A stretch of DNA of 64,000 nt from Rhizodiscina lignyota. Taxonomy: Eukaryota. Each line of letters begins with the position of its first letter. Positions within the stretch are counted from its first letter, which is position 1. Positions 3,652 through 56,600 of the stretch are shown here, piece after piece. Location: contig ML978141.1 in the NCBI GenBank assembly GCA_010015805.1, forward strand, positions 124,001 to 188,000. The letters are read 5' to 3'. The position numbers were made by a program, and so were the translations under genes. The notes under the pieces were generated by a model, which was not told the origin of the DNA, made no database searches, and saw nothing but the letters and a program-made list of their open reading frames with translations.

Positions 3652-5042
3652 GGTTTCAGGATCATTGGAAAAGGGGTATGCCCGTTTCTTGGACGATGGG
3701 ATAGACTGTCACAGTCAGAGAAAGATGTGCAAAGTCAAAGGCTCCACGTAAGGAAGATCAAGAAGACAAGGCACGAGATCACGAAGGTATCATCCTACCA
3801 TTCTGAACCATTAAAGTAGCTCAGTCCGATGGTCAGTGCGACTGAGCGTTCGACCTGATCCTGATCACTTCACAAACACGGCAGCTGCGAATGCCCGAGT
3901 GGCTGGTGTTTCGCGGCAATAATCATCCAGCGGTGTGCCAACAAGACAGGTCTCATTCCTTAAGTCGCATACATGTATGAAAGCAGCTCTCGAAAGTCTG
4001 TGAGTGACATCAGGGCGCCTGGGCGTCGGGCTTCCGCATGCTTCCTTACACCGGTCAGGCGTCAAGTTTTGGGCTTGGCCGTCCGCAAAACGAATGCGGG
4101 GGCAGGGCTCAGCTGGCTCCTCGAAGTTTGGGTGGGTGGCCCACCCACAACGGCCGGGCGGCGCCCCGGCCGGGAGCCATTTTAGTTGCCGCCCCTCCTT
4201 AAAACCACCACCTCTTGTATCGACTTGGGGTCCCCTTCTACCAGTTCATCCTCCGGCGCGCTTCAAAGCAATATTTCAGCCGTCGGAAATGATACTGCTT
4301 CAGCTAAGTGCACTTTATTCATTTCAAGCCTTCTGCTCGCTGAAAGCCATGTCTCTCGTTATTTCCTAAAGTCGACTGCACTGCATATCGTTGCCACTGA
4401 TTGCAGGCTACATGCGGAGAGGTCTCCAATCACCGCCTGACAACCCTCTACCATGCATAGCAACAGAAGAGTCAACCCGTTGTGGCGAGCCGTGCCAAGG
4501 GTTAATGCTGAGGGGACTGCAAGGTCGAACTCTACAGCCTGATCCCATCTTGTTGTCACGAGACTAAGAGCCTCATCAGCTGTTCCCAGCTATTCCCTTA
4601 CGTTTTGCTGCCTGAATTTTGTCCTTAAGATGATCTGTCAATCACTCGTATCATGGCACCAGTTCAGTGCTACGATCTTGTTTCTCAGCTTTCACATACC
4701 TTACAAGATAACGAGAGACAGGACGATAGTCTAACACAACCTTGGAGAGCGTTTTGGCCACCGAGCGGAGCTGCTGATCCTGGAATTTGGCGCAATTCGG
4801 AATTTCCAGAGGTTTCCATTTGGAAATTCGATCCAAGGCAGCCGTTTGATCGACCTTGGAGAAAATGGACCCGCACTCTGCGTGCAAAAGCTGAAGCAAA
4901 TCAATACTCGCCACAGAACATCGGGCATGAGATCACCTTTCCTGCGAACAATCGTCGTTGCTGCGAAGATCCCTATGATAGCAATCCCACACATTGTGCA
5001 GTAGCAGCCAAGGAACTGGATGTACAAGCCACGACTCAGGGC

Positions 5043-6084
5043 ATGGGAATTGTTACTTCGTCTTTCGAATACTTGGCTCCATTTGCTGAATCCAGATCGG
5101 AGAAACCTTATCTTAGTCGCCTTCCATCCCTTCCTGGTTTCCGTCGGACCAACATTTCAGGCTGCGATCAGCCAACCCAGGTCTACGAAGTCTCTGGAAA
5201 TGAGCATCTCTTCGCGTTGGACACATCTGGCTTCGCATTCGTCAAGTTTTCCAACCCGATTCTAGACTTCGCAGACTCGACCGTTTGTGAGAGATACGTA
5301 CCCTGCCTTGCCAGTTGGCTAAAATCTTATCTCAATTGCCTCGATGTACACGTATACGCATACAATGTAAGTCTTGTAGCTTTCTAACTGGACTCTCCTC
5401 GGCCTAACCAGGGCACCAAGTTTCGAGGTAATCATTCTGGACAAAGCAAAGACAAGCCCTGGAAGACACCATTCTTTCGGGCTCACTGTGGTACGCTTAC
5501 TCCACCATTTGGGTGATCGAGGATTGGATAATCAACCTCGTCTTCTGACATATTATATTGGACAAGACGCAACACCAAAGTCTTGCTCGGAAAGGCTCCA
5601 AATTTACCTCCCAGGGAAAGCAGAAATACTCGGAAGCAAAAGAGTTCGCTTCCTGAAGTGCGTGTCTTGGTCTTTGAATCAGTGCATGTCGCTGAGCTTT
5701 CTCGCGCAGCATCTGGCGTCCTCTCACGACACCTCTGCAAAACTCCCCATTGGCTCTCTGTGACTTCCGTACAGTATCTCCCAGAGACCTCATCGCTGCC
5801 GATATTTTATTCCCACATTATCTCGACGAGGCCTACGAAGTCTTGCACAGTCCAGCGCATCGGTGGTTCTACAAGCAAGGGATGAAAGAAGAAGACATGA
5901 TCCTGTTCAAGCTGGACGACACCGCTGAGGATGTAGCGAAATGTACGTTTAGAAACAGATCATAAATGCCTCCACATTAACTCCTCAAGCAGTATGCCCA
6001 CATTCAGCATTTATGGACCCATCGGTACCAGCTGACACCCCCGAACGGATGAGCATTGAGGTTAGAGTGATCGCCATCGGCTAG
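5043..6084 (+). CDS. AsaB/CmcJ-like oxidoreductase (often annotated as methyltransferase), multi-exon; possible in-frame upstream start at 4653
   Basis: Family motifs EKPY...TN, F.LDTSGFAF, AHC|D, SIWRPL...SPLALCDFRTV, HRWFY, CPHSAF.DP, ERMSIEVR are spread over five exons with GT-AG introns. Confidence 0.85.
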
Positions 6085-11505: not shown

Positions 11506-11727
11506 CAATGTCTACGCGTTCTCCAAATAGATGCGCAATTCCTAATAATAAAGAGGCTCTGGACTTATATCACACTCTGGGAACTTGTTTGAGCTTTGTA
11601 TTTGCGCAATTCATATCACCGACTGGCTCGTGTTTAGTCATTAATGTTATGTCTCTGATATCACAACCACCTGAAATTGCCTGACTAATAATCTAACAGT
11701 TTCAAATTGCTACGACGTTGTAAAAGC

Positions 11728-13517
11728 ATGGCAAGCACCGACTCCGCCGAACAGAGTCTTTCTTCGGACTACAAATCCGCGGATGCGGACAAGAAAGCAA
11801 CAATTTCACCTACCACTTATATATCTACGAATGATCTCTCTCATGTTGACGCTGAAAAGCACCTCTCACCAACGGCCAATGATGACGACCCACTCTCACC
11901 TGAAGAGGAAAGAGTCATTAATGGATGGAGATGGGCTCTGGCCTGTATTGCTCTTTATATATCGGTGTTCCTCTTTGCGCTCGACAATACCATCGTTGCC
12001 GATGTGCAAGCTCCTGTCGTAGAGCGATTTGGCCAAGTGGAGAAAGTCGGTTGGCTTGGTATCGGGTTTCCGCTCGGCGGATGTATGGCTTGTCTTACAT
12101 TGGGGAAGCTCTTCGGCCTGTTCGAAAATAAGTGGCTGTATATTGCTAGCATTATCATGTTTGAGGCTGCTAGCGCTCTATGTGGTGGAGCGCCTACTAT
12201 GGACGCTCTTGTAGTCGGAAGAGTCTGGGCTGGCCTTGGCGGTGTGGGCATGTATTTGGGGTGAGTCTCGCGCGAGTCGCCATCATATCGGCTGAGAAGC
12301 ACCTGACATGATACAGCACGCTAAATCTTATATCATCCTATACTCGAACAGCGGAGCGACCACTATATATTGCGGGTACTGCTCCGGCATGGGGACTGGG
12401 CTGCATTCTCGGTCCTGTTTTCGGTGGCGCCTTTGCCGACTCAAGCGCGACATGGAGGTGGTCGTTCTATTTGAACCTTGTCCTCTTTGGCGCCACTGCT
12501 CCCGTGCTACTTTTCATCCTCAAGCCGGTTCGCCCCCAACCAAATACACCATTGCTGGAGAAACTCAAGAGCGTTGATTGGACAGGAGGGGCGCTTACTC
12601 TTGCTGCATACGCATTATTCGTTGTCCCTGTTACTTTCGGCGGCGCACAATGGTCATGGGGCTCTGGCGGTTCAATTATCCTGTTCGTTTTATTTGGTGT
12701 ATGTTTGATCGCGTTGGTTCTCCAGCAGGGCTTCTCCATCCTGACCACACCGGAGCGGCGCGTTTTCCCAGTCGACCTGCTCAAGAGCCGTACTCAGATT
12801 CTACTATACATCAGCACAGCCTGCGGCGCTTGCGCTCTCTTCACTGGAGTCTATTACATCCCGCTATTTTTCGCCTTCGTTCACAATACCAATGGGATCC
12901 ATTCTGCAGTCCACCTCCTGCCATTCATATGCGTCGCCATCACCGTTGCGTTTTTCGGAGGAATCCTGCTTCCAACGGCAGGTAGATATATGCCTTTCTA
13001 CCTGGTCTCCGGCTCATTCCAGTTGATTGCTGCATGTCTCTTCTTCACACAGATCAACACCGACACATCCAGTGCAAAGATCTACGGCTTCAGTGCACTG
13101 ATGGGGGTTGGCGCCGGTCTCACTCAGCAAGCCGCGTTCAGCATCTCACCAATGCTGGTACCGGCTGATCGCGCCTCTGATGCCCTTAACTTCATATCCC
13201 TCGCTCAAACCAGCGGAATTCTCCTTTCGTTGACGATCTCAAGTGCTGTGTTTCAGAACGTTGGGTTCAGAAACTTGCAGAATGCGCTGCGAGGGCTCGA
13301 TCTGCCGGCTGCGGATATACACGCCGCACTCGCGGGAGCTAAGAGTGACCTACTTACAACTCTGCCTCCGGCATTTAGAGAGAAGGCGATTGTGGCTATC
13401 GTAAATGCTCTCAGGGATGGTTATTTGCTCGTCGTCGCGGGCGGCAGTATAGCAATCGTATGCGCGTTGTTGATGAAGAGAGGGAGGATGACTTTTGCTC
13501 CCCCTACTGCTGGATAA
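11728..13517 (+). CDS. MFS drug:H+ antiporter (DHA2, 14-TM efflux pump)
   Basis: LFALDNTIVADVQ, FEAASALCGGAPTMDALVVGRVWAGLGG, WRWSFYLNL, YYIPLFF motifs. One intron, 12261-12316. Confidence 0.92.
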
Positions 13518-17345: not shown

Positions 17346-17687
17346 CATGGAAAAGTCCAAGATTCTCACATGTGGATAACATGATACAGTGTTTATTCAT
17401 GTCGGCCGTGTCGTCAATATCTCTACGCGGCTGACAGAGAAAGGTGACAAATGTGCCCCCGACGCTTCCTGCGTTTCTCTGTTCTGTGAGCTGCTCATCT
17501 GCATAAATATCGACATTGTGTTATTTGTGCTTTTCCCAAGTGCCTACTCGTATGTACAGCCAGCTTGAATGCGCTGATTTGTACGCTCATACTTCGTAAT
17601 TTACTCGAGAATTGTCCTCCTGAGTCAATAGATCCTCATCCACTCAACAGCCCGACAAGGCATAGCGACGAGGATCAGCTAAGAAAC

Positions 17688-19530
17688 ATGTCTTCCCAGA
17701 GTTCAGACTTGGAGAGCAACAAGAAAGCCGAGATGGAAACAAGCAACCCGACAGTCTCGGTTCTCTCGACCAGCAACGGCGAGCACTCCATGGCCGACAA
17801 CACCCAAGAGAAGCAAGATAGCGCTGTCCCCTTGCCTGCTGGTGACGAAGAGCCCGAGTACGCGACAGGCTTGCGGCTTTTTCTCACCATGTTCACCATT
17901 CTCATGAGCTCTCTGCTCGCTGCCCTCGAGATTGGAATCATCGCCACCGCAATTCCCGGCATCACCGACGAGTTCCACCGACTTGAAGACGTCGGATGGT
18001 ATGGTAGCGCCACTTTCCTCGTCGCCGGTCCCTCTTCGCCAATGTGGGGCAAGCTGTACAAGTACTTCAATGTCAAGTACGCTTATCTTTCCTCTGTTGC
18101 ATTATATTTGCTTGGGAGCATTGTGGCTGCAGCGGCTCCAAATAGTGCTGCCGTCATAGTTGGCCGGGCCATTCAAGGTTTGGGAGGCTCAGGTACTCTC
18201 AGCGGCTCCCTCTCATCATCAATTACGTGGCCGAGCCCAAGAGACGTCCTATGCTGATCGGCATCTGGATGGGCGTCTTTATGATATCGACTATTCTCGG
18301 ACCTATCATTGGCGGCGCCTTCACAAGCGAAGTTTCTTGGCGATGGTGTTTCTGGATCAGCCTGCCGCTCGGAGCTCCCATCGTTGTCCTTAGTTTACTC
18401 TTCTTGCGGATGCCGAAACATATAAAACCAGTCCCGGCCACGTGGAAAGAGATCTTCGGACACCTTGATCTTCCGGGTTTCAGCTTGTTACTCGCCTCGC
18501 TTGTATGCTTCACCTTGGCACTGCAATGGGGTGGTCAGATCAAAGCATGGAATGACGGCTCTGTTATCACCACATTGGTCCTCTGGGTATCCTTTACCAT
18601 TATTTTCTTCATCGTCGAGGGGCTCCAGGGTGCCCGCGCCATGGTTCCGTTGAAGCTACTTAGACCACGAATAGTATGGACTAATGCATTGTACTGCTTC
18701 ACGTGAGTATCTAGTCCCCTATTATTCATGTTATTCCCAGTATCTGCAACAGAGATTGACCAGTCCAGCTCCAATTCGGCTTTATTCCAGGTTATATTCT
18801 ATCTCCCCATCTACTTCCAGTCCATCCACGGCAAGTCAGCAATCATGAGCGGCGTCGACAGCCTTCCTTTCTTGGCCTTCTTTGCTTTGGGAGCCGTGGT
18901 TAGTGGGGCGGCCATTGGGAAGACACTTCTCCTGCAGCCATACCAACTGACCAGCGCACTCTTGATGACTGCTGGCATGGCCTTGTTTTACACCATGGAT
19001 GTCGACTCATCTCAAGCTCGGTACATTGGCCCTGAGATCCTCTTTGGATTTGGTCTTGGCCTCAGTAATCAAATCCCAATGACCGCCGTGCAGGGTTTCT
19101 CTAAGCCTGCAGACGTGACAAGCTCTACTGGTATCATTTTCAGTGGGTGTCCAACAAGAATATGCATTCTGCTACATATTTACTATTTCCACTAATACCC
19201 TTACCAGTGTGCCAACCCCTCAGTGGCGCTTACTTCCTCGGGATAGCGCAGTCGATCTTCGCCAATCGAATGCTGCAGACACTTGAGACCACTCCATCCA
19301 ACGTCGACGCTGTCAAGGTCTTAAACACGGGCGCTTCCGAAATCCAGCACGTCTTCAGTGGTGGAGATCTGGCCGCTGTGGTCGGTGCTTATATGGTTGG
19401 GATCAAGGACGTATTTGCCTTTGCTCTGGCTGCCTCGGCATTCGCTGTCCTCCTTGCTTTTATGATTCCTTTCAAGAAGCTTCCTGATTATGACAGCAAG
19501 AAGACGGAGGAAAAAGTGGCGACTGTCTAG
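17688..19530 (+). CDS. MFS toxin efflux pump (DHA2, GliA/AflT-like), frameshifted near 18210 (pseudogene or sequence error)
   Basis: IIATAIPGITDEF...DVGWYGSA, IVGRAIQGLG, GPIIGGAFTSEVSWRWCFWI, YLPIYFQSI motifs. The frame changes within AGC GGC TCC CT CTC ATC ATC AAT TAC, with no intron to restore it. Confidence 0.85.
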
Positions 19531-20803: not shown

Positions 20804-21050
20804 TGTGACTCGAGATATTTCAGAAAGAACATTATGGGCAAATGGAGTTGCAGTCAGTATATATGTACTGCGAGATGGGAAGAGTAAAGGAGTCGCAGGG
20901 ACTATTTCTAGCCAATCAAGACGCTCCATGGTGCCAAGGCTGGCCGCGCGCGAGAGACACCGCGCGGTCCTCCCAGCGCGCGCTGCCTGACTCCGGCAGA
21001 CACCACGATATCCAGCGAGCACAACAAGTCTAACTCTCCGATGCTCCGTG

Positions 21051-22898
21051 ATGACAGATCCGAAAACTTCAACCGGCTGCTGGACGTGCCGGATCCGCCG
21101 TAAGGGATGCGACAATGCGTTTCCAGTCTGTCGAGGGTGTGAGGCGCTAGAGATTAGGTGCTACCACGAAAAGAGCAAGCCAGAGTGGATGGACAGTGGG
21201 AGCAGGCAGCAGGAGATGGCTCAAAAGATTAAAGCTGAGATCAAGCGTAATGCGAGGCGTCGTCAAGGCAGGCAAAAAATCCAGACTATTGTGCGAGACA
21301 TTGACGAAGCCACTCCCCTAAGCTCGACTCACCTGGATTTTAATTTGCCATCCTCCGCCAACCCAATAGCTTCTTCCCGCCAAACTCCTTCGACTCTCGG
21401 CTCCGAGATAGAACATGATGGCATTCCGTCCTCAGCAACAAGCACAATGTATGAGCGGAGCGCCTCGCTGGATCTCTCCGACAGTAGACCCAACCAGCAG
21501 GATTCAGACGAATCGACTATACAAGATGCTCCAGTGCCAAGTCTTTCTCTTCCGAATAAGCTTGAATTGATATTTGTCATGGCATACTTGGACTATGTCT
21601 TCCCTGTCTCATTTCCATTCTATCGACCTACCATACTCGAGGGCGGTCGCGGCTGGCTACTCAGCTCCATCTTGGGGAACAAGTGCCTCCACCATACTGT
21701 TATTAGCCTGACTTCGTACTTCTTTTCTGTTGTTGAGGTCAATCCTCAGTCCGCCAACCTGATATGTGGATCATACACCTGGGAAGCCCTGCAAAGCCAG
21801 ACAGAGCTAGCTCTAAAGAAGGCACAGCGTGATCTGCATGAAATCAGCTGCAATGGAGTTCACCAAAACATTTTGGGCAGCGCAAACCTGATAGAAAGCA
21901 TTGTAAATCTGCTGAGTGTTGAAGTCATCCTCGGCTCGAACGAAAACTGGCAAATGCACCTTGATGCTGCAAGCTTCTTATTCCAGCGGCTCCTCGACTC
22001 TCACAGGAAGGACGATCCATACTCCGCATTCTCACATATTCTCGAGCTAGTTGACGCCTTATCCTTCCGAAGACCTCCCGATTCACCCCTATGGAGTCCT
22101 GAGCAAGCTGCCTTCCGCTTCTTTTCCGCGATGCTTATATTCAATGACATTGTCGCCAGTACATCCCTCGAGCAATCCCCAAAACTATGCGAATGCTACC
22201 CTCATTTGCTAGGAAATGACCCACATCCAGAGCCAGACCCGTCACTGCAGCTGGCCGACTTTATCGGCTGTCAAAACTGGGCGTTGATAGCAATAGGTGA
22301 GATTGCCGCGCTCGATGCATGGAAGAAGTCCATGAAACAAATCAATCAGCTCTCTGTACCGGAATTGGTACAGCGCGGCGCTGTAATCGACCAGCATTTA
22401 CGGGACGGCCTGGCAGTTCTTGACAAGCCTGAGTCGCAAAATAGAGAAAAGAAACGTGTACCTATTACACAGCTCGACACTCTACTCTCTCATACACCCT
22501 GTGCACCAGAAACTATCAACGCCATCACCCACATCTGGGCTCTTGCGGCGCGCTCTTATCTTCTCACCACAATTTCGGGATGGCAAGTCGCCAACGCTGA
22601 ACTCCGCTCCAACGTTGCGCAAACGATTGGCCTCCTCACCGACTTGGCAACATCTCCTACGTGGATGCGCACGCTTGCCTGGCCGTTGTGTATAACGGGA
22701 TGCTTAGCTGATGAGGGAGAAGAAGTATTGTTGCGCCAGCTGCTCACTGACATGGGAGGCTTGCAGGCATTCGGTACGCTGCGTCAGGCTCTGAGCATCA
22801 TGGAGCATGCGTGGCGCAATCGCACGCAGATTGATACAGAGAATTGGGACCTCGCGGCGTGCCTGAGATGTTTGGGTCATCGGGCTCTGTTGGTGTGA
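21051..22898 (+). CDS. Zn2Cys6 transcription factor with Fungal_trans_2 (DUF3468)-type C-terminus
   Basis: GCWTCRIRRKGCDNAFPVCRGCEALEIRC; YLDYVFP, WQMHLDAA, GCQNW, WPLCITGCLA motifs. Single ORF. Confidence 0.92.
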   Translation: MTDPKTSTGCWTCRIRRKGCDNAFPVCRGCEALEIRCYHEKSKPEWMDSGSRQQEMAQKIKAEIKRNARRRQGRQKIQTIVRDIDEATPLSSTHLDFNLPSSANPIASSRQTPSTLGSEIEHDGIPSSATSTMYERSASLDLSDSRPNQQDSDESTIQDAPVPSLSLPNKLELIFVMAYLDYVFPVSFPFYRPTILEGGRGWLLSSILGNKCLHHTVISLTSYFFSVVEVNPQSANLICGSYTWEALQSQTELALKKAQRDLHEISCNGVHQNILGSANLIESIVNLLSVEVILGSNENWQMHLDAASFLFQRLLDSHRKDDPYSAFSHILELVDALSFRRPPDSPLWSPEQAAFRFFSAMLIFNDIVASTSLEQSPKLCECYPHLLGNDPHPEPDPSLQLADFIGCQNWALIAIGEIAALDAWKKSMKQINQLSVPELVQRGAVIDQHLRDGLAVLDKPESQNREKKRVPITQLDTLLSHTPCAPETINAITHIWALAARSYLLTTISGWQVANAELRSNVAQTIGLLTDLATSPTWMRTLAWPLCITGCLADEGEEVLLRQLLTDMGGLQAFGTLRQALSIMEHAWRNRTQIDTENWDLAACLRCLGHRALLV

Positions 22899-23581: not shown

Positions 23582-25786
23582 TCAGGAAATTTCCGGTCCC
23601 GGCGTTTGTACCGGTGGAGTCTGTATTCGTGCAGTCTGCGTCTTTGAGTTGTGCCTCTTCTCTTTAAACATTGCATTTAAGGAAGACGCGGATCTCTTTT
23701 CCAACGCCCCAAATGCCTCTCTGGGTTCGGCATCAATACCATTCGCGACATCCGGTCCCAATCCGGGTGCCTGATACATGTAGACTCGAGCGCGGGTCGT
23801 GGTAAGAGGCTGGTATTCTGGAGGCGGTGAGCCACCTTCCCAGACGTCTTCGACATATTTGTTCATGCGCGATGGAATCCACAGATAGTCGACTAGGACA
23901 TCGGTGAGATTGTCGAATGTCGAGATTGGCGGCTCGACTTCACGAGTGATCTCTGCGCATTGGGCGAGGAAGAAAGACTCTGCATCGGAACCCATCGCGC
24001 CCATTGTGCAGATGACAACAAGCCAGACGCCGAATGGTGAGCCACGCAATAAAGACGTGAGGTCGCCGTCTCGCCAGTGTCTTAGAAGCCGCGGAATGGC
24101 CTTGTCGTGAAGTGGTTCGTACACTGGGTCCCTGCCGCGCACCATGACGGCGAACAAGATCATCAGGCCAAGTGCGAGAGCTCCGTTGAGCGATTCGGAC
24201 GTCTCGACGCGTTCGAAATACCAGTGCAGAAGCTTCGTGCCGATGAGCGAGGTCAGGATTTGCATCTCGAGACCATCCCAGACGCTTTTCGAAGGAGACT
24301 CGAACCATACTTTCATATTCTACCTTCTTAGTCAGTCATTCTGTTGAGTTTCACGGAGGCATTATTGTTTATAGACAGCGCTTACCAATGCGTGGAAGTG
24401 CATTGAGCGTACTACTCGGATGAGATCGCTATCGATGGCAAAGTCTCTGCACGCAGATGCGATCAAGCATGGGGTGTCGTCCAGCTGAGTGTCCGTCGCG
24501 TATTTGAAGTCTTCGTACATCATCTCTTCCAGCATCTGGCGAGACAGGTATGGCATCTCGAAACTCGACATGGATTTGACAGTGCTGTACCTACTTCAGG
24601 TTAGATGCCGCTTGAGGAAATGGGTTACCGATTCTGCAATTGCCCACCTGACAATGAACGCTTGCAAGCAACGATTTCCAAGTTTTCGCACTCCACCACG
24701 CAGTTCTACCATGTGGATGAGGCCGCGCAAATGCACATCCCGATGTACTGGATCTTGCGAGAGCTCTCCTTCGCGTTGGAATGTCGGAAGAAACAAGGTT
24801 TCTTCGACGCAGAGAAGGTTGAATACCGCAGCCAGATTAGCATCGCTCAGAGCCTGCTCTGGATCTGAGATGTTCTCGTTCACCGCAGCAATCGCCGCTG
24901 AGCGATGGTACAAGACATCTTGAGGCGAGCTCTTAGGATGCGTCATGTAGAAATGCAAAGCACTGATGCAAAGAAGGCTGTGCATGAAAGCACTATTCGC
25001 GAGTGAAGGCGACACCCAGTTTGATTGCACGACTTCTGGCTGTCGGCCTAGTGTAATGGGCATGAAAGACGGAGCGAGCCGCGACATGACTACTATCCGT
25101 CAGCCTTGTCGATCATGTGTTTCCAGGCTGCTGGATAACGTACAATGGTCGAGCGGCCCGGGGACTCTGCCATCGATGGGTACAGCGACACTGTCAAATG
25201 GCCTGCGCCCTTCGCTCGGCTGGATCCAAGGGGGCGTCCCAACACCTGCCCCCAGCAGATCGCATTCGAGGCACAAGGCCTCCCCTTCCAAAAGTGGCCG
25301 CTGGCAGAATGTACAGCGACTTGGAACGGCATTCTCGATTGCTCGCTTGCGTTTATGATGCGGACCAAAGCTGGGGAACGGCTCCAGAGACAATCGAGGG
25401 TCAAGCGGGTCATTGGTTCCAGAAGTACCAACTGCTACCGGACAGCTTTTATCGGACTTCTTCAGTTTGTTACCGTTTGACTTGTTCTTCCTTTCAGGGC
25501 CGGCATTCTTCTTGGCCTTCGAACTAGGTTTCCTCCTGTTGGCGCTTTTAGTGGACCACGGGTGTTGCGTACGGATCTTGTGCATCAAGAACGACCTTGG
25601 CGTTCTCTCGGCCGACGTGGCTCCATCAAAGGAGGAATTAACAAAAAGGAAGTCGTTTGCCGACATTGTGTTCATTGGAGTGATGGTCTCGTGGGGCGCC
25701 GTAGACTGTCCTTTTGAGGCAGCAGTAGCTGTTTTAACAAAATCCGTTCTGGACATGAATGTTGGTGAGAACTGATGAGCCACCAT
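23582..25786 (-). CDS. Fungal_trans_2/DUF3468-like transcription factor-related protein without a C6 cluster (multi-exon)
   Basis: FLFVN...RSFLM N-terminus, DPRLSLEPF, AFMHSLLCISALH, AIAAVNENISDP, HLRGLIHMVELRGG motifs. Four ORFs separated by GT-AG introns. Confidence 0.75.
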
Positions 25787-28564
25787 GGTCGCGGTTTTGC
25801 ATGAAGCGGAAATGGTAACTATAGTCTTCGCATGGATCTGCTGACTGCCAGGAAGAACCAGCCTTTCGAATGCTGCCGATATTGATATCTGCTCGTCACT
25901 TGTTGGACTCCTCTCAGCTTTAATTGATTTCAGACAATACTATGCACGAGGGTAACTGTCGTCCTGGAAATGCAGTGCCGCCTTTGGACTATCCCTGGTA
26001 GATATGAAGCGCGGAAGACGTCGAGTAGCAAACTATGTAAGATGCTATATGCGACATTAGGCGAAGTAGCGCCGCCTAAGGCCCTTATGAGGACCGCCCA
26101 CGAGAGACGACAAGACCATTGGGAACCGGTAAATCGCGTGCTCCTGCGTTGCAGCATCCATGTCCGTTCTGATTTAAGGTTAATTCCTGCTAACTCCGCG
26201 ACAAGAATGACGAGGGTGGGGACCAGTCAGATCTAGTTCGGTTCAGAAATGGCGTACACTTGCACCCTCCCAAGCATTGCTAGTTGATCGCTTGATCGGA
26301 GCTCCGCAGCTGCAAACATAACATCTTACTAAGACGGCACGGTGTGACACGCGTTTGCAGTTTGCGGAGGCGCAGGACTGGCATTGTTCGGCGCAAGCCG
26401 TACGGGAGGAGACTGGTCGAAGCATTCTGATAGAAGATCCCGGACGAGAATCCTCGGTGATGTTGGTGCTCGCCAATGATCATCTCATTCTCCTACGGCC
26501 GGAAATATTCCGAACACCCACGAGTTCACATGTCCTTGATATCGAGTCGCAGGATTCGATGCTGCCTTTCAATACTGAATTGGATAGCCTGTCTACTCGT
26601 TCTAGAAGCATGCTAGCTTCCACCAGAGCAGGTCCTCGCTCCATTCTGTGGAAAGTGGAAGGCCGCAACCCACGGAACTGGTCATTGCGGAAATAAACGA
26701 AAATATCTTCGAACACGCCTTGAATCAAGCGGCATATTACGCAGAGGCGTGCCGCACAGAGATTTTCTGGGATGCCGAGAGCGCCTGGTTACCTGCTCCT
26801 TCGATTGTATCGGGGACGGGATGAAGTGAAGTTGGAGGCCTGGTTCGCAAAGGTTCCGTGAAGGGAAGAGGGTCGCTATGTTGACTAATACATGAATCAG
26901 CGAGGTCGGCGAGCAACACTGTTTGTAGTATTAAATCTGGAAAAGTCTCAGATTTGGCAAGTGTCAAGCCAATTATAGTAAAATATGGAGCTGGCGACAA
27001 AATTGTCCCAGCGTTCTGAAAATTCCGAATTAGGGAATCGCCCCTTCTGGCAATCACAGCGATGTCGAGCGAACGTCTGACAACTCCAGGAACCACGACG
27101 ACGATGTCCATCTTTGAAACGCTAGGCTTGTGCGGCATCGGCATACTAGCCTCATCAGTAGCCAAGCATGCAAGTTGCTTGCAGGATCTCCCATCGCATC
27201 AAACGGCTGACATAAATACCAATGCTCCTACATAATCCTGTGAACACATGGATGGATCTCCCCAAAGTCATTATCTAACGCGGACCTGCTTCCTTGCGAA
27301 AGCATCGAATCGGCAGGCTTGGCTAGACACAGCCACGGGGAGTTTGCGGTAGCGTGAGACAAGGCGTTGAATCGATTCATACCCGCGGCTCGAATTACTC
27401 TTCATGTCTCCCAAGAACCATGTATCATCATGTGATGATTGAACGTTTGCGTCTTTGGCGAATTGATTTGAAATGCATCACGGTGCCTTAGCCATTCGTG
27501 ATTAAGATGCCATCATAAAAACAAGAGAAAGGTAAATGCCAAGGGTATCTGGAAAAACTAGAGACAGAAACACCTTTCCGCCATATATATCGCGCTTTGT
27601 CAGCGGCCTGAGGAACGCCGCGCTCAAAGATTGTCGAAGCTTTGTGCTCTTGCGGAGGAAAATTCCTTCTTGAAAGGATGTTAGGTAAGCGTTCGCTCCA
27701 TACATGTATTCGGTAGCCTGTAGCCATGCCATATGAATGGTGTGTCGGCATACGATAAAGCACACAGTATCCTTTCATCTTGAGACTTCGGCTCTGAGTG
27801 AACATGACAGCTCGGCTCGATATCGCAGTGGCCGAGAATATCCAGTTTCATTGCTGCGTTGGATCTGAAACTTATTCGAGAAGGAAAAGATACCCACAGC
27901 AAAAAGGTGCGCATATAAACATTAAGAGAATTGTAAAGCTCCAAATTCCACCAAAGGCTTCAAGCGAGCAAAACATTGCTGGACGATGCCGACAGATATT
28001 ACGGCCAGGCCCCCATTCCAGAGAGGAACGCCAAACGAAACTCCCAATGGCCGCGAGCAGTCGAGGGCGACGAGGCTCATCTTGCGAAGATACCCTCTAA
28101 TGACATTTACCCGCTGCGTCCTGAAAATAGTGGAATCATGACAGCGATTAGTTGTGTCCAAGAAATTAGTACATCTGTGATCCGGATTATAAAAGAAGTA
28201 GCCAGTAGCATCGACGTCTCCCAAATTCCCTAACAAATGTGGTGGAGTTAAGATGCGCCTAGCAACGTCGATATATGGTGCGTAAGCTCCGTGATTGCGT
28301 AATATCCATCCTGATCACTTCCAGCATGATCGTCATATCATTACGTCGGCGAATCGGACTGCCGGTGGAGTCGTATCTGATTGATAAGATCTCGTTAAGG
28401 TATCGTTACCAGCGTGAAGTTAGAAGTTGATCTTGCTGCTGACGACCATCTCGGTAAGCTTTCTCCAAGTTGGCAATATTCCAGTCGCCAACGCATCGGA
28501 CCGAATAGGATTTCCAAGGGTCCAAAAATGGGACTCCAGGTCAAGAATAGAAGTCCGATGCCAT

Positions 28565-49451: not shown

Positions 49452-49928
49452 TCAATTGTATTTTTGAAGTGGCGTTTTATCAAAAAAGTTCCTTATCGCG
49501 CAAATCTGAAATCCGTCTGTTCCTTTACCCGGATCCGCCTTTCTGATAGTATAGATGAAGAACCTGGGAATGGTTGTTCCCTCAGTTTTACCATGCGGCA
49601 CAAACGTCGTCACATCCTCGATATACAGCGTGTACTTCTCCTCCTCCTTGTCCGTTATGAGCACAAACGATTTAGCGTCATGTGTATGTTGGAATGGTCC
49701 AAACAGCTCGTCGTAATGCTCCCATACTACCGCTCCACCATGAATGATTGTGCCATCGGTCTCGGTGAAAACAGTATCTGCAGAGTAAAAGTCATCGAAA
49801 GGCGCATCCCGGAATTCGTTCGGTTTGATAAAGTTGGCACCGTATTTGGCGTAAAAGCTCAGGACTGGGTGTTGAAGAAGGTCAGGTGTGGGAGGGCCGC
49901 TGTGGTAAAGGGTTTCGTATGGCGCCAT
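49452..49928 (-). CDS. Small NTF2/SnoaL-like fold protein
   Basis: 158-aa ORF with DDFYSADTVFTETDGTIIHGGAVVWEHYDELFGPF (NTF2-like F..D..F...G....G pattern) and GKGTDGFQI. Confidence 0.6.
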   Translation of the reverse strand: MAPYETLYHSGPPTPDLLQHPVLSFYAKYGANFIKPNEFRDAPFDDFYSADTVFTETDGTIIHGGAVVWEHYDELFGPFQHTHDAKSFVLITDKEEEKYTLYIEDVTTFVPHGKTEGTTIPRFFIYTIRKADPGKGTDGFQICAIRNFFDKTPLQKYN

Positions 49929-51679
49929 ATTGATTGCAAAGAAGCACGAAACTTGAATTCTGCTTTTGTCGATTTTCGTTCTGTTGGAATTGGATACTAT
50001 ATACCTACAACATCTCTTCTTATATGCTACAAACTTTCATATTGACTGCAATACAATCCCGAGGCGGCGATTAACTCGGCCGAGTTCGCTACAACGCTGT
50101 TACATGCATCCCGGCCGTGAATGCCTCGTACTAAGCTGAACAATGTATGGCAGTAAGTTGTTACTAAGCATTCAGACCGACGCTCTGCTCGAGTTTCGGC
50201 GTTGAGAGTGGGGCTGTCCGCCTCCAATATATACAAGTAGTTAAAGTCGACTGTCGTGCTTCTGCCCAGCGAGGATTCCAGCTTCACGGAAGCTCCGGAC
50301 TTCGTAAAACAAGATCCGTCGACATGTCTATGGTAGCATTGGCTTCATTAGTAATCTTTTACTTTGCATTCGGCTTCTCCGATACTTCAATGAGCGTTAA
50401 CCCAAAAACCCAAAGAGCCAACGATGGCTCTGCTCTTGGACTTCCAATATCCAGCCGGCCGATTTAAGGGAAGCGTTTCTTGCACCCTAGCGCTACCTCG
50501 GTCTCATTTCGAAATATTCTTCTAACGCAGTCAATACCTGCCCGCTGATTCATCACCAGAGGGTTGAGTTCTTCAAAGTCGTTAATAGTGGTGGAGAAGC
50601 GCCACACAATGCATCACGCCCATGATGGCACACTCTTTCGGTCGGGTTCACCATCGAGCTCTCAGCCCGGTTTCAACGTCGTACCGTGACTTCAGGGGCC
50701 ATTTGAGAGACTTCGGTGACATCGGACACAATGCTAAATCCCGCCAAGACGACTCCGCCCAATACCAAGGCATCCGCGCGAGACGTCACGCAAGCATTAA
50801 TGGCTAAGATTTGCTCTGTCTGGCTTGAATTATCTTGACTCTGATTGGCACTGTCTTACCAAGAGCCCCTAATGCCTCGAAATGTGATTAAATGTGATTA
50901 AAAGCGGTCAAAGGGGATGACATCGCGCTCATTTTGACTTTCCCGGGGCCAGACCATTAGTGGCTTTCTCCATACTCCGAAGACGGCCAAGAAGGCTATC
51001 ACGATGCTTATGACAACTAGCATTGATACTACTGCATTTTTCGTCTTCCCCGTGGGTGTTTACCGCACCCTTTCACATCATGATGGGCGAATGACATTGC
51101 TTCTCTCATTCACGAACCTGGGCTTTGTTACTTCTTCAGGAGAGCTAAGGCAGTGGATTTGCTAAGAGTAAGCAGGGCAACACCTATGGATATTTCCACG
51201 GCAGTGCCCAAGATGCGGAGTGTCGAGAGTTGATTGACGTGGAAGAGCTTGAAGGCATTGCGTTGCCCTTCTCCCCTGTTTTGGACCGAAGCCTTGATTG
51301 GCATCGCTTTCAGCGCTTTTATGGAAGCCAGGAGCATCTTTCCCACGTGGCTGCTCTAGAGTTTCAAGTGTGTAAGGCGTGATCGACTTGTCTTGGACTG
51401 ACGCGCGTTGTCTTCGTTGTCGGACATCAGGTCTTCAGGTAATTGCTGCGATGATGGTGACATCGCACGCCACGAAATTAATAGTAACAGGCGTTGAGGA
51501 GAAATCGACATCGAGGTTTCTGCAATACTCGTACATTCGATGTCAGGTATAAGAGGGACTAGGTCGCCAGAGCCTGGCCATCATAATCGAATAATTTCTG
51601 CATAGTCAATCAGTCAAATATATTCCTCAATTCAGGTTTATTGAAATTCATTTTGTGCGGAACGCCCACAGTGTCTACT

Positions 51680-52216
51680 ATGCGTTTTATTGCTCTTACA
51701 CTTCTTGCCGTCCCGGCTCTTAACGTCGTCGCCACTCCGGTCGCAAGTTCTGGAGTGCAAAATGCCGTTGAGCCTCGCTCCGCTGAGTATCCTGTATGTC
51801 TTAGCCTAACGGTTTTCATTCGACCGTTACCGCTCCGAAGCAAATGCTAACACATCATTAGACTTTGTCGAAGAAGAATCATGGGGCTGATCCTCTTCCA
51901 CACCATAGTGGTCTCGATGGGAGGTCGGCGAAGCATGGGGCGGATGACCAATCATAGTGGCCTTGATGGAAAGGTGAAGAGGAAACATGGAACCGATGAT
52001 CCTCTTCCACACCACTCTGGCTTGGATGGCCGATCTGCTAAACACGGTGCTGACGACCCTGTGCCACATCACAGTGGGCTCGACGGCCGTTCGCCCAAGC
52101 ACGGCCACGGTGCCGATGATAACCTCCCGCACCACTCTGGTCTTGATGGACGCTCAGCCAAGCATGGTCATGGTGCCGACGACAACCTTCCACATCACTC
52201 CGGTCTTGATGACTGA
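51680..52216 (+). CDS. Secreted His-rich repeat peptide precursor (KEP-like), two exons, with a frameshift in repeat 2
   Basis: Signal peptide MRFIALTLLAVPALNVVA; intron 51794-51861 (gtatgt...gctaac...ttag); six HG(HG)[A/T]D(D)xxPHHSGLD units, of which unit 2 is broken by a deletion. TATA-like TATAAGA near 51548. Confidence 0.8.
51880..52213 (+). repeat. Six coding tandem repeats of ~54-63 bp
   Basis: CAY (AGT/TCY) GGN YTN GAY recurs six times with different synonymous codons. Confidence 0.9.
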
Positions 52217-53614
52217 AGAAATATTGCTGCGGAGGTGTGGAGGACTTGCATCGAATGACTATGCAATGAGTTACGAAAATAAAGGAAATCAGTCGAGGGG
52301 GATAAGGAACACGACGTAAAATATGAAACGACATTCGGATAACAAGTACTGATTTCTTCCTACATGTACATACACTCTTTGAATGAGATATGACTTATGG
52401 AGTACAGGATAAGGACGTGTTACGCCGTGAATTGTTGCCGTCTTCGTGAAGATCATTGAGCCCTATGACAAGCTTGGATTTTCTAGCACGGGACACTGAA
52501 AGGAGTTTATAACCTGCTGATGTACTTCTGCATTTAAATTAGACACGGGACTCTGAATATATCTTGATTGACACGTACATTCTGAAGATTTATGTCTCCG
52601 CGCTCTCAAAGCTCTCGCCGCGCACAGTACACGTATCGCATATCCTAGCTTTCGCAATAGCTGATAGTATGGCTATGAGACTTATATATCAAGTTAATTA
52701 GGATAAAGGCAGTAATGTCCGATGCCAAACAGACGGGTCGTTTCGTTCTGCGGAACTTGGATAATAAAGGGTGTGAGTAAGACGGTTATCAGTGACATGG
52801 CAAAGAGTAGATATGAGATGAGGGCTAGTTGCATTGGTGGGTTCAGCTACCGAAGTTTAGGTACCCGCTAACCATGTGACTGGGTACTTAACCAGCCGGC
52901 TCGTCGTACTCCGGGTGCATCAAATCTACACGGCACTGCTGACCAACAGTTTACCTCCACTGCAGTTAAAAGCGCACGGGCACGAACAAGCTGTGCTATT
53001 TAGAATAATCCAACGAGAAAATTGGAGAAAGCGCGATATACTCTAAACCATTCTTGTTGGCCTTGTACAGATTCAACAAATATAAGTAGTCTCGAGTGAA
53101 GAGACTATGTACACCTTCACACACCGAGATATTGAATCTGTGGTACAACCTTTTGGCCCATGCAGGTTCTGTGGACATTATTCGATCCACACCACTATGC
53201 GACTGAAAGGGGAACGAATTTAGACTACTTTCCACATTGATTGTTCAGCTAAAGGGTATCTAAAACTTTTATTGTACAAACAAAGGAGATAGGCCATATC
53301 TTTACGCAAGATGTACTCGGCCACTTTGATTTCACCATACCTGTAGTGAAAGAAAAAAGTATCGAATGCCGCCGTGGGACATTTCAGTTCCACCGCATTT
53401 GTAACGAAAGAAAATCATCGAATACCACCGTGAGACACGCATCTGTCCACTATCCCAGGAAAACATCTCCTCGAATCTGCTCCGAAACCTTCAAGAAAGC
53501 TTCCTCAAACAATAGTCAGCTTCCTCATGCTGCGCACGCCCTCCTTGAAGTTTGCATCCCCCTGAAAGCCACTGTCCACTAGTAAGCAGTACCTGTTAGT
53601 TTCATAGGGAAGAA

Positions 53615-56600
53615 TCACTTGAACCTCTTCATGTACTTGTCCGCCGTAAGGAAGTCCAGCTCCATCCACTGCTTCTTCAACGCCATGTGCTGCTCCGTCA
53701 CCTCATGCACGATGACGACGGACCGACGGATCGTGCGTCTCGAGTAATACGCGTGCCGGTGAAACCACTCGATGATGCGCTCTGTAGCCGCATATGGATT
53801 CTCAAGGCCTTCGTAGTCTGGCATGTCGTGCGAGTCTAGGGACAACAATGCCGCGTTGTCACCAGGTCGGGGGACGTTCTCCACCCTCCACGTTTCCGAA
53901 GGGTTGAACTTGTGGTATACATGCCAAGTGATTTCATTGCGGGTGACGTGCTTGTCGTCCTTGGGGAAGCCATTGATCTTTCCATCGCGCAGATCTGCAA
54001 GCCACAACTGGAGGTCAGGGCGGCCGGCCAGTATCCATGTCTTCTTTCCCCACTCTTTGCCCTTGTTCTTCTCTGCCACATGCTTCACAACCGTGAGTGC
54101 GTCTTTGGGGTAGTGCGCGAAGACTTCGTCGGTGATGAAGACGATGCTTCCGCCAGGAAAGATCTTCTTGAAGATGAATTGATTCTCCGTTTGATACACC
54201 CAGCCATCTTCCTTAAGGAATTCATCATTGTTGATGGAGCCGAAAGTGAAGAAATTGCACTTCGAGTTGAGGAAGTACGACAGCTCCGGGATGGTGTAGT
54301 GTTTCCGGAGGGTCGGATGAGTGATGACAACTCCACCACGTTGATCATTCCGGAATAGCGCCTGCCAGCTCTTCCAAGAGCCCTTGACACCCATATGGTA
54401 CACCTTTGCGCCTTTGTCTTGCAGCATCCTTGTGAGGAGCTTGAGTTCGGCAGCGTGAGCCTCTGAGTCGAACATCAAGAAGAAGCGAGGAGCTAGGGGA
54501 GCATTTGGCCACTCGAGCAGCCTCTTAAAACCAACATCATCGATCCCATAAACAGTGTGCAAGACGCTCGCCATTTTGCCCTTGTCTGATCGCATCGATA
54601 TGTTACCTGCACTGAGGCCTCTGACGATTGATGTTTTGAGAGGGGCGCGAATATAGAATTGGAGCGCATGAATTGGGTCGTTCTTTGGTTTGAGGTAGGC
54701 CCATCGGTCTTGACGACTGGGGAACAGGAGAATCGCGAAGTCAGAATGCAAAATCAAGGCGCCGGAGTCGTTGATCTTGAGAGAGTCGCTGTAGACCTCG
54801 AGCGCTTCAGAAGAGGCGGGATCGTTCGGTTTGATTGTGCCAGAGGACAGGAGGTTAGTGGCATTGCCCTGTTCAAGTTAGTGGAAAGGTCCAGATGGTT
54901 GAAAGGTGGAATGGCGCATACCTCTTCCCAAAACACCCTGAAGTTTCCGGCAGTGCAGACCAACTTAACATCTAGCTTCGGCTGTTCGCCATAAGCGGCG
55001 AGAAGCAGAGATCGTGCTTCTTCGTTCAGTCCACCGAATTCCACCGGAATAGCTTGAAGTTGTCCAAAAATCTTCATGTCTGCGACAAACGGTTTTGTGA
55101 CAGGTCGATTTTTAGCTCTAGCCACATTTTCCGGAGAGAACATGTTCCTAAGCATTCGTTCCTCACTTGGCTTCAGGGCATCCGGCGTTCGGCGAGAGTC
55201 GTCAACATCGTGTTCCTTGTCGGGGTTGGTGGATGTGGCGCTCTCTTCAAGTCGGGCGCGGACTTTCCCGAGAGTCGGCACTGCCGCAGTGTTAGTAATT
55301 GGTAAATTCGTCAAGTGAAACATTTCCATGAAACTCACTTTCTCCGCCCCAGGGTCGGCAACTTAGAGGAGGTTCAGCAATCTCGTCGCAAACCACATGG
55401 TAGAACTGACACTGATCTTCTGGCATCTTGCATCCACGGATATTTTTATGTGTCTGGCATATACCAACAGCCCAGAAGAAGCAGGTTTTGTTCGCCTTAA
55501 AGCCGCCGGTGAAGGGATCTCGTGGAACGTGTGCGCTGTCTCGTTCGAAAAATATGCGTTGAGATGGAGCCATCAAGCCGGCCATCAGAAGACCAGTGTT
55601 CCAATGTGCACCATCGCACTCGTCGACAGATTTGTAACATCCTTTTCCGTAGTACCAGAACGCGCATGTAAATGTCCTTCGCCCGCCTGGGAGGGAAACC
55701 TTCAGTGAGTCGCCTCTATGCGCCTGAGCCTTGAGATTGAATGAGGCCGTATAAGGCGTGTCCTCGTGGAGGAAGGAGCACTCGTTATCCTCGTGATCTC
55801 GACACTTTCCTTCGGATCTCCAGGCTGGGCATGTCAGAGGTACTTTGTCGTCTGTTGTCAAATCCAGCCTCTCAGGTATCGGCAGAGTTTGTTCAGGAAC
55901 ATCGGCTCTTGACCATGGCCATCGTGGTTCATTGCGCTGGTTGGAGGTTGTTGCCGCCTCTGTTGTCAGGTCAAGTGGCATGAGAGCTGGTCGAAAGGCA
56001 CCAGTCTCTGGATCAAACGTCTCATGGTTTTCAGCTCCTCCTGGCGGGGGTTTCTCGTTCACTCTGGCGTTGTGAAACCTTGTCAGTTCTGTATGAGTTT
56101 TGGGGAGGGCGGGCCTGGAAGGCTCATGGTTGTCAGCAGTCCTCCTCCGCGGAGGCGCTGTACGCCTATTCGTAACTGGAAGTGGTTTATCCCAGTTTGA
56201 AAAGATATGCTCGCCGTCTTTTACACGCCGTCCCGCCATGTCTGTTGAGAGATCTGAAGTTTGTGCAGCAGGAGTGGTGGGTGTGTTGTTTTGTTGTAAG
56301 TTTTCTGGAGATGTTGTGGTGGGGGTTTGTTTTGGAGGGGTTCGTGTTGTTGTTGTTGCCTGGCCAGTTTTTGCCGCTGTGCTTGGAGCGTTGCTCAGTG
56401 CAGTCTGAGGGAGTTTCTTGGCAAGTGTTGGTGAGGGGGCAAATTTTTTGGCTGGACGCTCTTTCGGCTTGGGAGGGGGAGTGTTAGAGCGGTTTCTCTT
56501 CCTCCGCTTGTCCTTAACGCTGCTGGTTCTCAGCTCCTCCATGAGCGAGTCGTCGCTAAGAGCAGCCTCTTCTCTCAGAGGCCGGTTCGCGCTCTGCCTT

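Follow-up and report, generated by a model that had tools for sequence, protein, structure and literature searches.

The yeast α-factor precursor is the archetype of the Kex2-processed repeat proteins (KEPs). According to the definitions given with the published catalogues, a KEP bears a signal peptide and at least three tandem repeats with KR, RR, or KK (or also RK) between them (PMC6339444, PMC7329392); the repeats are at least 8 aa long (PMC7329392, PMC6339444) and make up at least 15% of the protein (PMC6339444). One of these catalogues lists 7878 KEPs, 2560 of them without homologues, and reports HH motifs in 3.9–5.7% of KEP repeats (PMC7329392). Ste13 is described as the protease that removes X-Ala and X-Pro dipeptides (PMC6339444), and peptidomics of KEPs has revealed cleavage after a single Arg (PMC9769878). 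Since KEPs are numerous and diverse, a further rare type of such a precursor is not surprising.

The window, i.e., the whole 64-kb stretch of DNA analysed here, holds a genuine secreted tandem-repeat peptide gene of a filamentous fungus that belongs to a very rare family; the coordinates of its features are collected in Table 1. An earlier note on this DNA had proposed that a signal peptide and a short pro-region precede six repeat units. The translation of exon 1 agrees with this prediction: its N-terminus is hydrophobic and similar to that of the homologous protein P0011 (see below). In particular, MR is followed by 12 hydrophobic residues, and the 9-residue Kyte–Doolittle means lie between 1.5 and 2.9 over residues 1–18. 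The putative signal-peptide cleavage site (NVVA/TP, where the slash marks the cut) was placed by eye with the help of the −3/−1 rule and hydropathy. The start codon has A at position −3. The intron placed in the earlier note was found again with its donor, branch site, and acceptor, and, as a prediction, it bears every mark of an intron of a filamentous fungus. The signal peptide and pro-region together comprise 43 residues, and the units fill essentially all of the sequence beyond. A tblastn search within the 64-kb window revealed no second copy of the gene.

Table 1. Features of the repeat-peptide gene, with positions counted from the first letter of the window.
Feature	Positions	Strand	Remarks
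TATA-like TATAAG	51548..51553	+	about 130 nt upstream of the ATG; pattern scan; putative promoter element
Exon 1	51680..51793	+	38 codons, MRFIALTLLAVPALNVVATPVASSGVQNAVEPRSAEYP; translation; ATG at 51680
Layout of exon 1		+	signal-peptide-like MR, FIALTLLAVPAL, and NVVA/TP, then pro-region ...VEPRSAEYP
Predicted intron	51794..51861	+	68 nt; donor GTATGT, branch site TGCTAAC 11 nt before the TTAG acceptor; putative splicing
End of pro-region	51862..51876	+	TLSKK (dibasic KK); translation
Unit 1	51877..51924	+	NHGADPLPHHSGLDGR; 48 nt; one Asp codon fewer than the other units
Unit 2	51925..51973	+	49 nt; SAKHGADD in the incoming frame, NHSGLDGK in the +1 frame
Unit 3	51974..52033	+	VKRKHGTDDPLPHHSGLDGR; 60 nt, +1 frame; bears the sole KR junction
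Unit 4	52034..52090	+	SAKHGADDPVPHHSGLDGR; 57 nt, +1 frame
Unit 5	52091..52153	+	SPKHGHGADDNLPHHSGLDGR; 63 nt, +1 frame
Unit 6	52154..52216	+	SAKHGHGADDNLPHHSGLDD, then TGA; 60 nt, +1 frame; C-terminus ...HHSG-x-DD as in P0011
TGA stop	52214-52216	+	ends unit 6 in the +1 frame
AATAAA	52278..52283	+	polyadenylation-signal-like hexamer, 62 nt past the stop; putative function

All six units are present in the translation with the amino-acid strings that the earlier note had listed, and at the DNA level they comprise 16–21 codons each. The description of the junctions as mostly monobasic is likewise correct: four of the five inter-unit junctions read G-R-S-[A/P]-K, one reads G-K-V-K-R-K, and the pro-region ends in K-K. 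The units are rich in His (16%), Asp (16%), and Gly (17%) and bear no Y, W, F, or C. A single-sequence AlphaFold2 model contains no secondary structure (pLDDT 57.6, pTM 0.11), which is weak evidence as no alignment was used. On composition alone, the most plausible activity of the peptides would be the binding of divalent metals.

That the amino acids of the units are nearly invariant while the codons differ, and that this reflects selection on the peptide and not recent slippage, was another claim of the earlier note, and three kinds of counts agree with it. Two to four codons spell the same amino acid in 12 of the 21 aligned codon columns. Among 242 codon pairs of the units, differences fall mainly on position 3 (152, or 63%), with 46 (19%) at position 1 and 32 (13%) at position 2. 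By the Nei–Gojobori method, units 3–6 give pS of 0.73–1.12, which means saturation, and pN of 0.04–0.16, so that pN/pS is about 0.13. The third-position bias thus indicates long-standing selection on the peptide. Units 1 and 2, each read in its own frame, follow the same pattern of synonymous changes with the consensus amino acids kept, and hence all six units must have been coding over a long time. Moreover, in the four G-R-S-[A/P]-K junctions the amino acids are constant and the codons varied, which argues that the junction itself is under selection. Tandem Repeats Finder (51600–52300, score 30) detected 0 DNA repeats, the repeat being visible at the protein level only.

Related proteins were sought with HMMER among 1.84 billion representative proteins. 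Eleven matches were obtained at E ≤1e-3. On visual inspection, nine of them were set aside as unrelated repeat proteins, and P0011 alone proved to be a homologue with the same architecture. It is a protein of 111 aa, named “hypothetical protein” by JGI, and the sole member of its cluster. Its N-terminus shares 20 of 37 residues (54%) with exon 1 (E 4e-10), a comparison that is independent of the repeats, while the units of the two proteins match at E 2e-11. P0011 consists of three identical 24-residue units, KNGADDPFAPHQNHHSGFDEVVKR, with R-R-K ahead of unit 1 and E-V-V-K-R-K at both inter-unit junctions. The two proteins have in common the core [H/N]-G-A-D-D-P...H-H-S-G-[L/F]-D and the C-terminus ...HHSG-x-DD; P0011 differs in the F-A-P-H-Q-N insert within its units, in its intact frame, and in KR at both junctions. 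As only one same-build homologue was found, conservation at the family level rests on two sequences.

Other searches added no further member of this kind. A word-index protein search with P0002 yielded 145 candidates, none at E ≤0.01, and with P0011 1757 candidates, of which only P0011 itself matched; of the 263 metagenome stretches that P0011 picked up in a scan, none was confirmed. At E up to 10, Pfam gave no family for P0001 or P0002 and only DUF6058 (E 0.37) for P0011, and Pfam together with NCBIfam contained no model for P0001, P0002, P0011, or the bacterial protein P0007. A stretch of P0011 resembling NCBIfam XopAJ scored 19.4 bits against a cut-off of 300 and was dismissed as noise. In the ESM Atlas, the best score for P0011 was 0.87 and that of an MF_alpha cluster was 0.81, both under the 0.9 threshold for a lead, and P0002 had no usable match. 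A full-text literature search for the core strings of the units returned nothing related, and a search on Kex2-processed, histidine-rich, secreted, metal-related repeats returned nothing relevant by title or abstract.

The earlier note assumed a six-unit precursor in one reading frame, and here the sequence disagrees: the two dots written within unit 2 conceal a frameshift. From 51862, the incoming frame reads TLSKK-NHGADPLPHHSGLDGR-SAKHGADDQS and then meets TAG at 51955-51957. The break is located within 51949-51955, and the remainder of unit 2 through unit 6 lies in the +1 frame; unit 2 has 49 nt compared with 57–63 nt for units 3–6. The product of the predicted splicing would be a protein of 69 aa that ends halfway through the second unit, after the signal peptide, the pro-region, and the whole of unit 1. 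Because units 3–6 are still perfectly conserved though out of frame, the lesion is recent. The present copy is thus a truncated or newly dead allele, and it may no longer work.

Could the break be a sequencing or assembly error, so that the strain encodes an intact six-unit precursor? The site is covered by a single data set, and conservation downstream of it is perfect, both of which would favour an error. However, an independent Logan contig of run X1 is identical over 51400-52500 (0 other letters, 0 gaps) at a mean word depth of 151.6, and a slip of one base in a homopolymer would not explain why unit 2 lacks 8 nt compared with unit 4. We regard an error as very unlikely. The identical re-assembly excludes an assembler artefact and does not address strain specificity, run X1 being the sole public run covering the stretch and probably the source sample of the window itself, not an independent isolate.

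Rescue of the frame by splicing can be imagined in two ways. A second intron was rejected: nine GT-AG pairs would restore the frame, and none has a consensus donor (the donors being GTCGAA, GTGGTC, GTCTCG, GTCGGC, or GTGGCC). The other way is a longer intron of 180 nt from the donor at 51794 to an acceptor at 51973, by which units 1 and 2 would be skipped in a functional gene. Such a transcript would be open from ATG to TGA and would encode 118 aa with four perfect units behind V-K-R-K; its junction, ...RSAEYP/VKRKHGTDDP, parallels ...RSAAPVMRRKNGADDP in P0011, and both lesions (the Asp codon that unit 1 lacks and the frameshift of unit 2) would fall inside the longer intron while units 3–6 are flawless. 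Nevertheless, the acceptor at 51973 is weak, with AAAG in place of the usual YAG at a distance of 122 nt past the strong TGCTAAC branch site, whereas the first AG after TGCTAAC is the canonical TTAG at 51861. In addition, units 1 and 2 keep the consensus with synonymous changes, which marks them as exon sequence for most of their history. A functional gene of this kind appears quite improbable.

In the +1 frame, unit 1 (51881-51940 of the window) reads as a hydrophobic stretch, MGLILFHTIVVSMGGRR, opening at an ATG in frame with units 3–6. It is the only ATG-started entry to these units without alternative splicing, and it probably arises by chance from the repeat.

We consider the best explanation, with slightly better than even confidence, to be a rare secreted repeat-peptide gene built like a KEP, whose frame is broken in unit 2 in this genome. 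In the ancestral state, the signal peptide would have carried the precursor into the ER. Proteases of the Golgi would then have cut at KR/K (in P0011 and at one junction of the window gene) and at G-R/S-[A/P]-K (at the other four), and the ends would have been trimmed by a Kex1-type carboxypeptidase and a Ste13-type dipeptidyl aminopeptidase. As a result, about six unstructured His/Asp/Gly-rich peptides of 16–20 residues, starting with K-H-G-A-D-D, would have been released outside the cell. Release is not assured, since four of the five inter-unit junctions are without a dibasic Kex2 site.

The second credible HMMER match, P0007, is encoded by a high-GC bacterial gene, and four metagenome loci (L001–L004) found with P0002 are also high-GC bacterial genes for small exported proteins. 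A genome scan added 18 loci (L005–L022) from Burkholderiales, Chloroflexia, Anaeromyxobacteraceae, Rhodobacteraceae, Hyphomicrobiales, Mycobacterium, Marmoricola, Solirubrobacterales, and Conexibacter, and a profile search, in which 8000 candidates were scored, gave at least 344 proteins at E ≤1e-3, almost all of them unnamed. The proteins of this bacterial family have about 75–220 aa with repeats of [K/R]-[H/N]-G-A-D-D-P-A-G-[H/D], often ending in D-D-G-P-N-H. Pfam and NCBIfam offered no model or domain for them (L001–L022, P0007, and P0014–P0132). The JGI name “Ni/Co efflux regulator RcnB”, carried by three among the 120 bacterial matches listed, was not reproduced by Pfam and was set aside. 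An N-terminus is available for 17 loci, and in 12 of these the first motif comes immediately after an A-x-A signal-peptidase-like site, as judged by eye. Half of the 18 scanned loci (L006, L008, L013, L014, L017–L020, and L022) have a histidine kinase and/or a GerE (NarL-type) response regulator at a distance of at most about 1.5 kb; the kinases were recognised by HisKA_3 or, in L006 and L013, by HATPase_c only.

Two other neighbourhoods of the bacterial genes may be mentioned. A large DUF5916 protein adjoins the repeat gene in all three Anaeromyxobacteraceae loci (L007, L010, and L016). In L004 (2-7631, the same Burkholderiales sequence as L005), a CHAT-TPR protein, an S8 subtilase, the repeat gene (4803-5333), and a TonB-dependent receptor follow one another in one direction, a layout that suggests, from this single locus, a system in which a peptide is cut and imported.

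The bacterial proteins share with the window gene a secretion signal and a repeated [K/R]-[H/N]-G-A-D-D-P-x-x-H...G-x-D-D in a low-complexity, His/Asp/Gly-rich sequence; in the window gene, too, the signal is followed by the repeated core with a downstream His and G-x-D-D. They differ in that the bacterial genes have neither Kex2 sites nor an intron, and their motif usually lies at the predicted signal-peptidase site, whereas the fungal genes, of which P0011 has Kex2 sites, bear an intron and a eukaryotic signal peptide. When the fungal pair (A3) was compared with ten bacterial members (A4) by hhalign, a probability of 96.9% was obtained (E 1.5e-10, scores 53.4–56.2). The controls remained far below, with scores of 11.6 for the reversed alignment, at most 17.3 in 100 column shuffles, and at most 31.2 in 200 unit-consistent permutations of P0011, and none reached a probability of 90. 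The bacterial set was gathered with P0002 itself and is therefore not independent of the window, and the shared core has only about 10–20 residues, too short for a tree; homology, convergence on one function, or selection bias may each account for the likeness.

The occurrence of the same core in bacterial look-alikes without a Kex2-type system suggests that the motif can be active without cleavage of the protein around it. A rival explanation holds that the fungal family encodes no peptide precursor at all: its product would be a secreted, intrinsically disordered repeat protein rich in His and Asp, which resembles the bacterial HGADDP-repeat proteins and would do its work with little or no cleavage, perhaps by buffering or binding metals outside the cell. 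The basic residues would then belong to the functional repeat and would not be protease sites. The hhalign result and the monobasic nature of four of the five window junctions are consistent with this explanation, as is the conservation, without Kex2, of the Lys ahead of H-G-A-D-D-P in the bacterial proteins. It is harder to reconcile with P0011, in which KR at both junctions and RR before unit 1 constitute a KEP signature, and with the residue after G-R-S, which is only Ala or Pro, both acceptable to Ste13 according to the preference given in PMC6339444. An uncut protein is possible in our opinion, if rather unlikely.

A bolder proposal makes the window gene and P0011 eukaryotic members of the widespread bacterial family, which extends from Actinomycetota and Chloroflexia to Proteobacteria, the core being a conserved metal- or sensor-binding module that one fungal lineage acquired and repackaged as a Kex2-processed multi-copy precursor. 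We hold this to be unlikely. If it were correct, one and the same mature N-terminus, K-H-G-A-D-D-P, would be exposed by three routes: by bacterial signal peptidase at A-x-A/K-H-G, by fungal Kex2 at K-R/K-[H/N]-G, and by fungal cleavage at G-R/S-A followed by dipeptidyl aminopeptidase trimming. Should the likeness reflect a common activity, the function of the fungal and bacterial groups alike could be established by one binding assay on a synthetic peptide.

To return to the window, the neighbours of the repeat gene are housekeeping genes, encoding Mif2/CENP-C, a chromodomain protein, a Rab GTPase, and the 75-kDa subunit of NADH dehydrogenase. The gene is flanked by two long ORFs on the minus strand, one of 194 aa (49455-50036) and one of 420 aa (53618-54877), neither with a Pfam match at E ≤0.001; the latter is probably part of the chromodomain gene extending to 57223. 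Two MFS transporters, one of them TRI12-like, and two Fungal_trans_2 factors are encoded at 11692-13514, 17490-19192, 20991-22895, and 24599-25939. These genes of the first half of the window are distant from the repeat gene and have no obvious link with it.

The earlier note had also reported no DUF3328/UstYa gene in the window and considered a linear peptide more likely than a dikaritin. This opinion is supported: DUF3328 was found in none of the 141 ORFs of at least 110 aa in the 64-kb window (E ≤1e-5), a size limit that a gene with small exons could escape, and the units are without Tyr or Trp. A product of the dikaritin or ustiloxin type is thus unlikely, and a linear peptide is the more likely one. 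Among described precursors, the ascomycete KEPs of groups G-3 and G-8 resemble the window gene in having HH with Pro in their repeats (Umemura 2020, PMC7329392), a likeness drawn from descriptions, as Table S2 of that paper consists of accession numbers only. DUF3328 cyclisation genes adjoin 57 of 64 G-3 and 45 of 49 G-8 KEPs (PMC7329392), but none lies by the window gene. The motif strings of the units had 0 occurrences in the supplements of PMC7329392 and PMC6339444, which for the former, with its accession numbers, is uninformative.

How, then, does the gene compare with the KEPs as a class? With the KEPs described by Le Marquer et al. 2019 (PMC6339444) and Umemura 2020 (PMC7329392), it shares the signal peptide, the short pro-region, and the tandem arrangement of near-identical short units. 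Common to both as well are the basic junctions, the X-Ala or X-Pro that follows the cut, and the lack of a neighbouring gene for a modifying enzyme. A secretion signal is indicated by hydropathy, the −3/−1 rule, and the likeness to P0011, and the repeats make up more than the required share of 15% of the protein. However, only one of the five inter-unit junctions of the window gene is dibasic (both are in P0011), the units are His/Asp/Gly-rich without aromatic residues or Cys, and the frame is broken, so that the spliced frame encodes one complete unit and a half where a KEP has at least three repeats; the ancestral frame, or the model with the acceptor at 51973, would encode three or more. 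Nor is there a Pfam MF_alpha or MF_alpha_N match that would liken the gene to pheromone precursors of the α-factor type.

P0011 fits the KEP definition, and the window gene does not. As P0011 has KR or RR before every unit, the ancestral design is that of a Kex2-processed repeat protein, and the window gene would best be described as KEP-derived, most of its KR sites probably having been replaced by G-R-S-[A/P]-K before the frameshift arose. The α-factor/KEP design read into the locus by the earlier note accordingly stands as regards the signal, the repeats, and, through P0011, the RR/KR sites, and falls short as regards dibasic junctions in the window gene itself; its processing logic is plausible but unproven. 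The family offers a natural test case for monobasic cleavage combined with dipeptide trimming, beside a sister gene, P0011, with textbook KR sites. What is new here is one rare histidine-rich type in the already large and diverse class of KEPs, present in this genome as a broken copy.
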